This document shows, piece by piece, positions 1,422 to 39,469 of a DNA stretch of 64,000 bases. A program made the position numbers and the translations under genes. The stretch spans positions 1-64,000 of IMG/VR virus record IMGVR_UViG_3300028048_000097; one strand, given 5' to 3'. The first letter of the stretch is position 1, and every line of letters begins with the position of its first letter. The stretch is from a virus. Taxonomy: Duplodnaviria > Caudoviricetes. Under the pieces are notes generated by a model that saw nothing but the letters and a program-made list of their open reading frames with translations, made no database searches and was not told the DNA's origin.

Positions 1422-4400
1422 ATGAATAAAGACAAGGAAATCGAAAAGATTAATCAATGTATAAACGATTTAATTTACGATAAAGTCCAATTAAAAAAAG
1501 CATATAATTATTATCATTGTATTCGTGATGCGGAACAATTTAAGCATCTTGAAGATAATTATGGAATTGGGACACCAACTTCAGTTACATTTACTCCATT
1601 AATCAAGAAACATATAGATGTCCTTGTCGGAGAATATTTAGAGTTAGACCCTGATTTACAGATATCTTGCAAAGATGAGAAAACTGTTTCAGATATAATG
1701 CGTGATAAACAGTTAAAAATTCATGCTGCTGTTTTTGAACGCTTTAAACAAAAACTTCAAAATGCAATTATTCAAGTTTTACTAGAAAATAAAGAAGTAG
1801 TAAATGATCCGTTTTTTGATCAAGAAATAGCAAGGCTTAAAAAAGAAGTTTCTGATAACTATGTATCTGAATATGAGATTGCTGCGCAGAATATATTAAA
1901 TTATATTAAAAATTCACGTGATATTGATTTAAAAAATAAGATGCGTGAATTGCTTACTGACTTATTAATAGCTGGAGTATGTTATTATCGAGTTAGACCT
2001 TCTGGAGGTAAAAATAATCTAAGGCTGGAAATACTAAATCCATTAGATACTTTTATTGAAAGAAATCATAATGACTTTTACTTAAATCGTTCACCTAGAG
2101 CTTTTACTAGACGTTGGTTAACTATAGATCAGATCTTAAATGAATATGATGAAGAGCTTACATCTGAAGCTCGTAATATATTAATTAATAATACACATCC
2201 TAGTAATAGAGATAACCGGCACATTTATGTTAGAGCAGCTGCTGGTGATGGTTTTAATAAAATACCTCGTGGACAATCACCTGGTTTACTAGGAGGTTTA
2301 GAAGTTTGTCCTATTAGAGAGGTTGTCGATCCCTATTATAACTACAATGCCAATTTATTACCTGTATATGAGTGCGAATGAATTGAATATGAAAAAGATA
2401 AATTAGTTCGTCATGAAGGTATTAAAATTGGAGAAGAAGTTTATATAGTACGTGGGGAATCCGAAAATGTAGTTAGAAGTGTGTCTAATCCAAAAGATTG
2501 TACTTTATCAATAAACGGAATCTTTTTTGCAGACAAAAATGGAGCACCTTTTAGTTTGATTGTAAATACTATGGACTTACAGGATTAAGATAATGGTCCT
2601 GTCTAAATCCCGTGAATTGCTGGAAAGCTAAAACTTTATGTCATGCTAATCAGCAGCCAAGCCTTATTTAAGGAAGGTTCAACGACTATTATGTAGAATT
2701 CAAGCGAATTCGAAGCGCGGGAATATTATAAAACAACGTAAATTAAAAAATAAGTAGTTATGCCTAAAAATAGACTTAATGAAGTTGAGTACAAACAAAA
2801 AGTAAATGATCTCTATAATGGAGATATTGAAGTTATAGGAAGATATAAAAATTTATCTTCTCCAATATTAGTAAAAGATAAATACGGAGTTTTACAATTA
2901 AAACAAGCCAATTTTATATTTAGTGCAAGACCTACTATAAAATGTGCTTTAAATAAAACTGAGTATTTTATGAATCAATTGAGAGATAAATATCCTGAAA
3001 TTGCCAAAAAAATTAAGCCGGTTTCTGAATATATTGCAATGAAAGAAGATATGTTATTTGAAACTAAATATGGTATAGTATCAACTTATCCTGATGCTCT
3101 AATGGCTGGGCATGAGCCTAATGTTAGAAGCGCTATAAATAGAAAAGAATATATGAGAAATCAGTTAAGGATGCTATATGATTATAAATACGATTTTATT
3201 ATTCACTCTACTAACCGACATGAAGGTAAGTGCACTTTAATATGCCCAATTCATGGAGAAGTTGAAATTGATAATGATTATGTATTTGAAGGCTGTGGAT
3301 GTATAAAATGTAATACAAATTGAACAAAAAGTGATACTTTGTACGTTATAAAATTAACAAATGAATTTGAATCTTTTTATAAATTAGGTATTACATATAT
3401 AAAAAATGGAAATCCTCGAAGATATAGAGATTATAAAAAAATGGGTTATCAAGTTGATGAATTGTACTTACATACTTATAACTCTTATACCGAATGCTGA
3501 GAAAAAGAATTTGAACTAAAACAATTAATTAAACCTTTTCTTTATCAACCAAAAATTTGAGAAAACGATAGTTCAACAGAATGCTTCGGTAAAAATTTAT
3601 TAGACGTTGTTATTGAAAATTTATAATATATGATATAGTCTGATCTCATATGAAAATATGAGCTGCATATGCGGGTGCAAAATAGCGAATTGCACTGAAC
3701 AAAATACATTATGATTTAACCTTATTCTATAGAGATAGTTTAATTGCTAATAGTGGTACATTAGGTGATTGAGTTGATGTAAATCACTTGCCTGTATTTT
3801 TAGGAGAAGAATTACCTGAAAGATTACAAAAATGACTTGCTTATAAGAAGCAAGGAATGGGTTTATTTGATTCTTCTCAAGAAGGAGCTCAACTATTAAA
3901 TACTACATTTAATGGATTTGACGATACACTTAAAGCTCAAATGATTCAAGCTTTTGACTTAGTACTACAAAGTATAGAAAATCAAGCTAGTTCTATTACT
4001 GGTGTATTTGCAGAAAAACTTGGAGGTATTCAACAAAGAGACGCTGTTAGTAATGTAAAAGTTGGTATTAGACAATCTACTTTACTAACTAAACAGTATT
4101 TTTCTGCAATGGACTTACTATATAAAGAGGTAAATTATGATTTGTTAAATCTTGCTAAAATAGTATACAAAAAAGGTATTTGCGGTACATTAATTAATGG
4201 TAATAAATTAAATCAAATATTTACAGCATTGCCTAAATATTATACAATGACTGATTTTGATATTCATATTCAAGATAGTACTGAATTATTTCAAGCAAAA
4301 GAAAATCTTCGTGCATCTAGTATGGAACTTATTAAAGCTGGTCAGGCAGATCCAACAATGATAGTAAATATCATGCTTGCTAAAAATATAACAGAACTTC

Positions 4401-4741
4401 GTAATTATATTTCTGACGCTGTTAAAACTCAGAAAGAAGAAAATAATACTATTGGTCAGTTACAGCAGCAAGCACAAGAATTGCAGCAACAGGTTCAACA
4501 ACTTAGTAAACAAGCTAATCAACTTCAAGAAGAAAATAATAATCTTAAGAAACAGCTTGAAAAGAATAGTAATGCTAAGATTGAAATTGAACGTCAAAGA
4601 GTTGCAATTGAAGAACAAGAAATGAGAAACAAGAAGGAGTACGATGATCGTATTGCAAAAGCAAAAGAACGTCAAGTTGATGTTGAGTTTTTACAATTAT
4701 CTGACGGTAATCCTTATAACGATAAAGTAAAAGACTTATAA
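1422..4741 (+). CDS. Portal protein, spliced (exons 1422-2585 and about 3707-4741, about 732 aa)
   Basis: Follows terL. Motifs FTPLIKKHIDVLVGEYL and ITGVFAEKLGGIQQRDAVSNVKVGI, plus a C-terminal Q-rich coiled-coil barrel. The exon junction reads ...MDLQD|HYDLTLFYRDSLIANSG. Confidence 0.9.
2586..3706 (+). mobile_element. Group I self-splicing intron in the portal gene, carrying an endonuclease ORF
   Basis: The 5' exon ends in U (caggat). The IGS gtcctg (2596-2601) forms P1 with a U-G pair, and ataatg (2590-2595) pairs with the 3' exon cattat (P10). Core elements: gtgaattgctggaa, aatcagcag, ttcaacgacta (2678-2688) and gatatagtctg (3632-3642). Confidence 0.92.
2760..3626 (+). CDS. Intron-encoded putative homing endonuclease (288 aa): repeats, Zn-finger, C-terminal GIY-YIG-like domain; TGA=Trp
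   Basis: The ORF reads through TGA at 3321 to TAA at 3624-3626. It has a CPIHG...GCGCIKC zinc motif followed by LYVIKL...FYKLGIT...R...E, and lies inside the intron between the R and S elements. Confidence 0.75.
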
Positions 4742-36622: not shown

Positions 36623-39469
36623 ATGAGAATATCAGGTTTTACAACCACTCGTCCTAATATGCCTGCTACTCGCACGTATCAGGACTTTATGCAATTCTTG
36701 GGTGAAAGTGATTTGTGCCCAAGTAAAACCTTGTGAATTGCGGGAAGTCCTCTAGCTCATAATAATTGGATAACCCGCAGGGAAGCTTTAGTGTAATAGC
36801 TAAAGAACCTTCAACGACTAAGCCTTGAAACTAGAAATAGAATATATTAGGTACACGAGCGCAAGGCAGTGTTTTATACTGATGATATAGTCTGAACATA
36901 TACGATAGTAAAGTATATGAAGTATAAGTTAAACGCTTATATAGAACAAATAGACAAATCCGGCTAGACTTGGTATCGTATCTACTCTTTACGACCAGTA
37001 TACAGCCACTCACCTTACCGAAGCTCTTATGAATACTTACACGATGGAGCGTGGTAAGAAGGGATTTCAGTCAATTAATTCTTTTCTTATTGAATGGGAT
37101 CTTGCAGTAAATAAAATTAAAAGAATTCCAATCATTGCTGCTCCTGTTGGAACCGGCGTTAATGGTTGTGATATTAAATTCTATTTTGGCGAAAACTACT
37201 ATCAGATGTATGATACGTTTGTGGTAGAAAAGACTCGCCAACAGTTCTTTGTAACTAATATGCCTCAACGTCTTCGTGATAATTGCTGGCTTGTTGTTGC
37301 TAAGATTCTTGATAACGATTACGATTCTGTTGTTGATTATTATGGTGCTACGGCAGATGCTATGATTGGTCTTCAGACTCGTTTCGTTACAAACTATCAT
37401 CCAGAAATGCATGATCGTGGCTATGTCAAATATCAGTCGAATGTAGAAAAAATGCGTACACATATTTCTACACATCGTTGCGATGTTGATATGTCTGCTA
37501 TGTATAATGCACTTGAGGATGTATTTATCCAGATCGGTAAAGGTAAAGATGACGATCCTGTTTATAAGCTTAATACAGCTGAAAAGGATTGCTTAGATTC
37601 TTTCATGGAAGCTCGTAATAATGCACTTCTTTACGGAAAGACTGATGTAGATATTACTGGTAAGCCTTGACTTTCAATGAGTTACAGGGCCGCATAATGG
37701 TGACATTATGTAGAAATCAATCAAATTGCTGGGAAACCTTTAAGCAAATAACACCACAATATATATATGATGGTATGACAAGAGTATTTGATTAGGCAAT
37801 CAGCAGCAAAGGCCACTTTAAGTGGAATGTTCAACGACTAAAAGTTTGAAATCTTATGTATAAATATATAGTTTATAAAACGACGAATATAATAAATAAT
37901 AAAATTTACGTAGGTGTTCACAGAACAAACGTAGATATTAATGATGGATATATAGGTTGTGGATTATACAATTCGGAAAAAAGTCTTAAACAGTTTAAAA
38001 AGTATAAATTTCACAACGCGGTTAAAAAATACGGAGTTTCTAATTTTATACGCGAAACTTTATTTGAATTTGATGATACTGAAACTGGAAAACGATTAGC
38101 TTATAAAAAAGAGGCTGAAATTGTTAATAGAGAGTTTTTAAAGAGACCTGACGTTTATAACACATGTTTGGGTGGTAAAGTTCCGTCTTCTACATTAGAA
38201 AGAGAGATTGCACAGTATGATTTGGATGGCAATTTTATAAGATCTTACTATTCTATTACATATGCTTCTCAACTTACAGGAATATCTCATAGTGGTATTC
38301 AGGCAGCTTGTGCTAACGAGATAAAGTATTGTAAAAATTTTCAGTGAAAGTATTTTTATGGCGATGAAAGTAAAATTGAAGCAGTAACTACTCCAGAAAA
38401 AGTAGTATTTCAATTTGACCTTCAAGGTAATTATATTACCTATTATAAAAATTTATCAGATGCGGAACAAAATACAGGTATTAGCAAAAAAGGTATTTGT
38501 GATGTTTGTCTTAAAAAAAGGAGATCTTTTCATGGATACTACTGAAGTTACCAAAAAAAATTTGAGTATAAACCAAGAGATACTCAAGGTACAGCGGTAG
38601 CATGCTATACTGACAATGGTATTTTTGTTAAATCATATTCATCATTAACAGATGCAGCACAGCAATTAAATATACCTATATCATGTTTAAGTAGAACTTT
38701 AGCGGGATATAGAAAACATTGTGCTAAATATAGATGGCGTTATTTTTATGGTAACACTTCTAATATAGAGTCGTTATAAGATTAAGATATAGTCTGCTCT
38801 TTATAGAAATATAAAGCTAACAATAGGAAAATATATGATGAAATTGGGAGACCAATTATTACCGGTGATGGTGTTATTGCTCAGATCGAGCGTTTTGCTA
38901 CAAAGTTTGTATTTAACAAAATGAATGTTAATTACTTTGAGAAGGCTCTCCAGACAATGATAGCTAAGTCAGAAAAAGCTCAGGGTAATTCTTATGTAAT
39001 TCTTGCTAATTCTGCATTCTATCATGATTGGCAGAGAGTAATGTCAGCTTGGATTGGTGATAAGAAGACTGATGGTGCATTCCTTTACTCTAAAGGTTCT
39101 AACGGTTATATGAATCTTGGTGCTACATATGAAGGCTATACATATGGTGGTAACAGCATTATTGTTAAGATTGAGAGATCTCTTGATGTTGAATTCCCTA
39201 CTCGTGAATACGCATTAATGCTTGACCTTACAGCAGATGCTTCTACTGGCAAGCCCGCGATTGCTTACTTTACATTTAAAGGTGGTGATTTTATTCATAA
39301 CTACATTAATGGAGTTGGTGGTTCTACTGGTTTAGCTTCTGGTGAAGTTTCTAGCCCTATTGCTGCTCGTAAGCTTATTAACTGGGGTTATGCTGGTGTC
39401 GGCGTATTTAATCCTTATCGTTCTGTAATCCTTATGTCTGAGGAAAACAGAGATAGTTTCTGGGTTTAA
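36623..39469 (+). CDS. Major capsid protein, three exons (36623-36703, 36954-37667, 38828-39469)
   Basis: Spliced product reads MRISGFTTTRPNM...QFLG|TNPARLGIVSTLY...GKTDVDITGKP|KIYDEIGRPIITGDGVIAQIERFA..., typical of crAss-like MCP. All junctions are in frame. Confidence 0.92.
36704..36953 (+). mobile_element. Group I intron 1 in the MCP (250 nt, no ORF)
   Basis: P1 cttgggU/gcccaag (36717-36723) and P10 gatttgt (36710-36716)/acaaatc. Core elements gtgaattgcgggaa, ttcaacgacta and gatatagtctg. Ends in G. Confidence 0.92.
37668..38827 (+). mobile_element. Group I intron 2 in the MCP, with a GIY-YIG ORF
   Basis: The exon ends gccU, pairing with gggc. Core elements aattgctgggaa, aatcagcag, ttcaacgacta and gatatagtctg. 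Ends aacaatagG and restores the frame. Confidence 0.88.
37856..38779 (+). CDS. Intron-encoded GIY-YIG homing endonuclease with NUMOD1-type repeats (307 aa); TGA=Trp
   Basis: YIVYKTTNIINNKIYVGVH. Three repeats of the type (Q)YDLDGNFI..Y.S...A......I...C....W.Y. TAA at 38777-38779. Confidence 0.85.

Follow-up and report, generated by a model that had tools for sequence, protein, structure and literature searches.

We analysed a stretch of 64,000 nt (hereafter, the window), which is the first 64 kb of the 100-kb virus record IMGVR_UViG_3300028048_000097 from bovine gut and reads as protein only when TGA is translated as Trp (code 4). In this window, the gene for a P22-type portal protein is interrupted by a group I intron. 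Our comparisons make it very likely that this intron is spliced at 2585|3707, with A3706, and not a G, as its terminal (omega) nucleotide; its tail reads TGAACAAAATA, of which A3706 is the last base. We infer from the sequence that the same junction is used in vivo. The initial annotation of this DNA had suggested that an omega-A ribozyme with an unmodified G-binding helix splices an essential gene, and the comparative evidence described below supports this suggestion.

The splice junction was defined mainly by comparison with uninterrupted portal genes. The open reading frame (ORF) that contains portal exon 1 (1422–2588) stops at an in-frame TAA (2586–2588), which lies inside the intron directly after this exon. 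The frame of exon 2 opens at 3698, and the two frames represent the two halves of a P22-type portal. Joining 2585 to 3707 yields a coding sequence of 2199 nt for a 732-aa portal, and the predicted ligated junction is ...CAGGAT|CATTATGAT. Two intronless alleles, L180 (3001–5199) and L181 (1329–3527), are also 2199 nt long and show no insertion or deletion against the joined exons at 97.2–97.4% nucleotide identity. Their products, P0008 and P0009, are the closest portals, being 98.8–98.9% identical to the 2585|3707 product over 732 residues without a gap.

Next, a 72-aa query spanning the junction was compared with 5.8 billion proteins, and it returned about 100 full-length portals, mostly of 729–736 aa. 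We observed that exactly one residue separates QD from YD in all the 95 homologues in which the motif could be read (R in 69, K in 21 and Q in 5). The intronless portals of three human-gut phage records also align without insertion as LQD-[RK]YDL, which answers the check on the LQD-HYDL region that had been proposed earlier. Among 21 viral-contig loci, 13 were intronless and contiguous at the junction, and eight had an insert at exactly the same site. A further 38 distinct introns at the portal site place the junction identically, and their tails align with that of the window intron base for base. Because the joined exons have no indels relative to the intronless alleles and a single residue stands between QD and YD in 95/95 homologues, the intron 2586–3706 is taken to end at A3706. 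The homologues and the same-site introns thus agree with the 3′ splice site that had been placed from the guide alone. We also confirmed that this guide, ATAATG-GTCCTG, pairs without any gap with CAGGAU of exon 1 and CATTAT of exon 2.

The introns at the portal site form a family in which both types of 3′ end occur. From 98 loci that include exon 2, we obtained 39 distinct introns; the truncated loci L114, L124, L126 and L138, which have CGGTCCTG guides, are outside the omega count. The 3′ tails of these introns align, and the omega column contains G in 35 of them and A in four (the window intron, L060, L110 and L117). The 35 omega-G introns, for example L046, L066, L037 and L033 from gut and rumen phages, resemble the window intron in the CAGGAT| insertion site, the core, the identical P7, the tail motif and, where an ORF is present, a homologous endonuclease ORF in P8. 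They differ from it in the G end and, mostly, in having a P1/P10 spacer of 1–2 nt or a mismatch and A/U at the first exon position (+1). Exact-pattern scans of viral contigs for the window intron's own 3′ tail and 5′ end gave no matches.

The motifs flanking P7, CAACGACTA and GATATAGTC, are present in all the 39 introns, and hence the G-binding helix is unchanged. The family alignment revealed no change in this helix that is specific to the omega-A introns. The P7 strands TTCAACGACTA and GATATAGTCTG occur in the portal intron and also in the two introns of the major capsid protein (MCP) gene of the window, so the earlier observation of an identical P7 in the three introns holds and extends to the whole portal family. 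Every named helix of the P3–P9 core, including the P3/P7 pseudoknot, was confirmed base by base. When scored on the consensus fold, the window intron forms 50 of 50 scorable pairs, compared with 49/51 for L060 and 48/51 for L117. It also has an extra hairpin between P7 and P3′; such hairpins (P7.1/P7.2) mark subgroup IA.

We weighed several explanations that would dispense with an omega-A. The initial annotation had considered a base-call error, and the rarity of omega-A favours this reading, but nothing further does. We cross-checked A3706 in contigs of runs X2 (3635–3900) and X3 (2532–3816), which derive from two further studies and not from the likely source sample; stretches not covered by runs X6 and X20 were given no weight. 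Both contigs differ from the window elsewhere and keep A3706. As three other distinct introns end in the same A and the base is unchanged in X2 and X3, a sequencing or assembly error for G has practically no chance of being correct and is regarded as excluded. The other option raised at that time was that the upstream in-frame G3697 is the terminal G, in which case 2585 would join 3698 and the portal would gain Asn-Lys-Ile. The frame is free of stops from this G up to 3707, and omega-G mutants of the Tetrahymena intron can use cryptic G sites. Nevertheless, we consider it improbable, as neither the 95 motif-readable homologues nor the near-isogenic intronless alleles have such an insertion. 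G3697 heads a tail motif conserved in 39/39 introns (GAA in 38) and often located 9 nt upstream of the splice site. Its equivalent is often in frame in the omega-G members too, and these splice at their terminal G and never there. In addition, the guide ATAATG is not complementary to AACAAA, and hence no P10 would be available.

A register shifted by one nucleotide, with the 5′ site after U2586 (U2586.G2595) and the 3′ site after C3707, would produce an omega-C intron and a portal with LQD-YYDL; the ligated sequence would be CAGGATTATTAT in place of the unshifted CAGGATCATTAT. The product length would be the same, and the guide pairs with CAGGAUU and AUUAU almost as well. However, in the three other omega-A introns this shift gives Cys or an odd residue, whereas the unshifted register gives the consensus Arg (CGT/CGA), and in all the 35 omega-G relatives the 5′ cut follows the first U of CAGGAU|U. 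Since omega-C is also no more canonical than omega-A, we find this register very hard to accept. We hold it equally doubtful that the intron no longer splices, leaving a dead or two-piece portal in a defective phage. RNA evidence of splicing was not obtained, which suits this explanation. On the other hand, contigs of several runs, obtained in different studies and differing at the strain level, have the same allele with the intron. Both exons are intact, as are the ribozyme helices, no start codon lies close to where exon 2 begins, and three further omega-A introns reside in open portal genes. Splicing at 2585|3707 with A3706 as the terminal nucleotide is, therefore, our preferred interpretation.

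We then compared the omega-A and omega-G introns column by column. L076, which alone among the omega-G introns has C at +1, was not part of this alignment. Only two columns set the omega-A introns apart, namely omega itself and the exon base +1, which is C in these introns and A or U in the scored omega-G introns. The guide base beside the wobble G is G in 4/4 omega-A introns, compared with 15% of the omega-G introns. As a result of this arrangement, all four omega-A introns have a C(+1):G(−1) pair and a spacer-free P10 of 6–7 bp, which starts at +1 and abuts P1. A spacer-free P10 is seen in 5 of the 35 omega-G introns, and the remainder have a spacer or a mismatch.

To trace the origin of the omega-A, we used a maximum-likelihood tree of the ribozyme cores from which omega and the exons were left out. 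The window intron falls into a clade (98/97 support) with the omega-G introns L046, L043, L077 and L092, while L060, L117 and L110 group with L083, L031, L139, L076 and L029. This topology needs at least two changes at omega. The closest endonucleases to that of the window intron are also encoded in omega-G introns (L066, 63%), and L060 and L110 are 72.5% identical to each other in this respect. A P5 extension is present in the L060 group, and the window intron is without it. It is therefore probable, although not proven, that two independent G-to-A changes took place and that each was kept in functional genomes.

The two branches also differ in the genetic codes of their hosts. Phages of the L060 group read TAG as sense, and the window phage reads TGA as sense. 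In-frame TAGs number 23–25 in the complete portals of L060 and L117 and 10 in the partial L110; across the full-length portals of L060, L117, L031 and L083 there are 22–25, with 14 in L029 and 8 in L076. With TAG translated as sense, no stop interrupts the portal exons of L060 and L117 or exon 2 of L110. One mobile intron family thus spans two recoded codes. The TAG-recoded relative L029 also has a tRNA gene (L029:531–620) with the anticodon CUA, of the amber suppressor type (Pyl according to ARAGORN), and a long extra arm.

Several points weigh against these interpretations. RNA spanning the portal junction was not found in the runs examined. In the 5.8-billion protein set, no protein with LQDHYDL, that is, with His at the junction, was found among the longer or similar-length candidates. 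With respect to the origins, an approximately unbiased (AU) test does not reject a single clade of the four omega-A introns (p 0.116). The idea that a stronger P10 compensates for the A was also rejected, as the window P10 has −3.1 kcal/mol, a strength equalled or exceeded in 13 of the 35 omega-G introns. With such an ordinary energy, compensation by strength is unsupported, and the register and the C:G first pair are its only distinctive features; the association of omega-A with a flush P10 is itself anecdotal because only two origins are inferred. The spacer-free register, not the strength, is thus a candidate for what makes the A tolerable, which we put forward as a lead and not as a result. 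A contig of the RNA run X20 covers 2415–2585 and then continues as AAATACGATCTTACAATCT (KYDLTI). It represents the intronless K-allele type (P0006-like) of another strain and is, therefore, uninformative on omega-A splicing.

Based on these observations, we propose how the intron might be spliced. The first step would be ordinary: an external guanosine bound in the unchanged P7 pocket would attack after the U2585.G2596 wobble. For the second step, helix geometry would probably be the main determinant of the 3′ splice site. The 6-bp P10 would begin at +1 with C3707:G2595 and stack on P1 with no spacer, and the stacked P1/P10 could present the A3706–C3707 phosphate to the 3′-OH of U2585 despite poor docking of the A in the G pocket. 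It is presumably this flush P1/P10 design that makes the A tolerable. Any effect on the rate would be presumed, and the suggestion of the initial annotation that slow splicing limits portal output is speculative. In trans-excision-splicing ribozymes, P10 is reported to be important for the second step (PMC2532722). A more speculative view, to which we give a rather low probability, is that, in this family, the second step is largely independent of terminal-G docking, with the 3′ splice site defined by a spacer-free, coaxial P1–P10 that has a C:G first pair, and that omega-A was selected for curbing G-dependent side reactions wasteful of portal mRNA. The side reactions in question, in this equally tentative scheme, would be 3′ splice-site hydrolysis and the formation of full-length circles. 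The same benefit of omega-A has been proposed for the mitochondrial ND5-717 intron (PMC8146996). If omega-A were indeed selected, the repeated G-to-A switches would be adaptive and could be predicted from the guide sequence.

The window intron has an intact endonuclease ORF in the P8 loop together with near-isogenic intronless alleles, as characterizes a mobile intron. The ORF product matches phrog_681 (“endonuclease”, E 9e-18) and phrog_559 (“HNH endonuclease”, E 1.8e-8), and it is 50–63% identical (over the aligned length) to the intact ORFs of ∼286–297 aa in other introns of the family. When the exons are compared with L180/L181, 12 of ∼60 nucleotide differences are located at −10 to +19 (2575–2585 and 3707–3726), whereas about 2% of positions differ elsewhere. 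The differences beside the intron site include the G of CAGGAT required for P1 and the CAT codon that pairs in P10. This clustering looks like exon co-conversion during homing or else divergence of the target site, and it implies that the intron is transmitted together with the unusual C at +1 and the His codon.

Four strain differences were noted in the intron ORF (3233, 3410, 3440 and 3588), three of them at third codon positions; this bias fits an endonuclease gene that is still under purifying selection. The main contigs of runs X2, X3 and X6 have an extra T after 2666 in the P6 loop, which means that either the strains vary at this place or the window record has a deletion of 1 nt. In other members of the family, truncated or decayed endonuclease ORFs (19–204 aa in a code-4 reading) were seen in introns L031, L067, L076, L102 and L110, and many introns are without an ORF. 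Homing endonuclease genes usually pass through such a cycle of gain and decay. As L031, L076 and L110 are TAG-recoded, the code-4 reading may shorten their ORFs.

Covariance-model searches recognized these introns to different degrees. With the Rfam model RF00028, a search of 2000–4500 at a permissive threshold gave no group I match for the window portal intron, which we attribute to the 867-nt ORF in P8 and not to the absence of a ribozyme. The ORF-less omega-A intron L117 (271 nt) matched RF00028 over the full length with 74.8 bits (E 5e-19; cut-off 50). An Rfam scan of five related loci at the gathering threshold missed their introns, and a narrow scan recovered L117.

Table 1. Coordinates of the portal gene, the elements of its intron and the MCP introns in the window
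Feature	Position	Strand	Remarks
Portal exon 1	1422..2585	+	388 codons, code 4; ends ...LQD
Group I intron, subgroup IA-like	2586..3706	+	1121 nt; aligns helix for helix with the family
P1 5′ strand CAGGAU	2580..2585	+	5′ splice site after U2585; U2585.G2596 wobble; CAGGAT| and the P1 wobble in 39 family introns
P10 guide strand AUAAUG	2590..2595	+	six Watson-Crick pairs with 3707–3712
P1 guide strand GUCCUG	2596..2601	+	checked base by base
P3 5′ strand	2609..2614	+	pairs with 2716–2721
P4 (2617–2622 / 2651–2656) around P5	2617..2656	+	family fold and base check
P6 hairpin (2662–2665 / 2670–2673)	2662..2673	+	base check
P7 5′ strand GACUA, G-binding helix	2684..2688	+	pairs with 3636–3640
Extra hairpin between P7 and P3′, P7.1-like	2696..2711	+	GAATTC-AAGC-GAATTC; base check
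P3 3′ strand	2716..2721	+	base check
P8 5′ strand	2723..2732	+	pairs with 3620–3629; intron ORF in P8 loop
Intron ORF, 288 aa, likely homing endonuclease	2760..3626	+	phrog_681 and phrog_559 matches
P8 3′ strand	3620..3629	+	base check
P7 3′ strand UAGUC	3636..3640	+	base check
P9 hairpin, GAAA loop	3645..3662	+	family fold and base check
P9.1 (3664–3666 / 3671–3673) and P9.2 (3675–3680 / 3690–3695)	3664..3695	+	family fold and base check
3′ tail UGAACAAAAUA	3696..3706	+	G3697 family-invariant; A3706 at the omega position
P10 3′-exon strand CAUUAU	3707..3712	+	C3707 pairs with G2595 directly beside P1
Portal exon 2	3707..4741	+	344 codons and stop; starts HYDLTLFYRD; P22_portal Pfam match
MCP intron 1	36704–36953		ends ...AACAAATAG, G; gap-free P10/P1 like the portal intron; RF00028 83.9 bits
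MCP intron 2	37668–38827		ends ...AACAATAGG, G

The bounds of the MCP introns were fixed by the intronless MCP gene of L148. The G ends of both introns and the contiguous P10/P1 design of intron 1 were seen as the initial annotation had described them. In MCP intron 2, P1 is short and there is an extra hairpin (37693–37710), unlike in the portal intron and MCP intron 1. MCP intron 2 starts with TGA at 37668, and in code 4 the frame of the preceding exon runs nine codons (WLSMSYRAA) into the intron (37668–37697); from the intronless MCP of L148, the true exon end is P (37667). In relatives, the MCP loci L150 and L170–L179 have inserts at several positions, up to three or four per gene; in this group of phages, the capsid gene is a hot spot for introns. 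A fourth RF00028 match of 60 bits is located in the same virus record outside the window (C1:92732–92966, − strand).

The terminal G is treated as a near-absolute rule for group I introns and is used in annotation to place splice sites. If this rule were applied here, three wrong residues would be introduced into an essential portal protein. The family also provides a natural matched set, in which 35 G-ending and four A-ending ribozymes share one site and identical G-binding helices, and near-isogenic intronless alleles are available. This set allows direct tests of how the 3′ splice site is chosen without an omega-G, and at what cost.

The closest known counterpart is the ND5-717 intron of hexacoral (sea-anemone) mitochondria, which ends in A and whose exons are nevertheless joined perfectly in vivo (PMC8146996, PMC6545197). 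Like the portal intron, it occurs naturally, belongs to group I, interrupts an essential protein gene and has a large insertion in P8. However, it is mitochondrial, strictly vertical and obligatory, and it carries host oxidative phosphorylation genes and not a homing endonuclease. The portal intron, in contrast, is mobile and optional, with near-isogenic intronless alleles, and its family mixes the G and A forms.

The precedent named in the initial annotation was the Coxiella burnetii 23S rRNA intron Cbu.L1917, which, going by the title of the paper of Raghavan et al. from 2007 (J Bacteriol 189:6572), reportedly self-splices without a terminal G. The case itself is real, its last base we take to be A, and ND5-717 adds a second precedent. 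Cbu.L1917 differs from the portal intron in being chromosomal and in an rRNA, not in a protein gene.

The classical phage introns of T4 (td, nrdB and sunY), Twort (orf142) and SPO1 (DNA polymerase) are self-splicing IA2 introns in essential phage genes. In common with the portal intron, they have a stop right after the 5′ site, their endonuclease ORFs are placed in peripheral loops, and several occur per genome. By description they are set apart from it, since all of them end in G and their ORFs are in other loops. Omega-A itself is an already documented rarity; the present analysis adds its recurrence within one mobile phage intron family, each time on the background of a spacer-free C:G P10.

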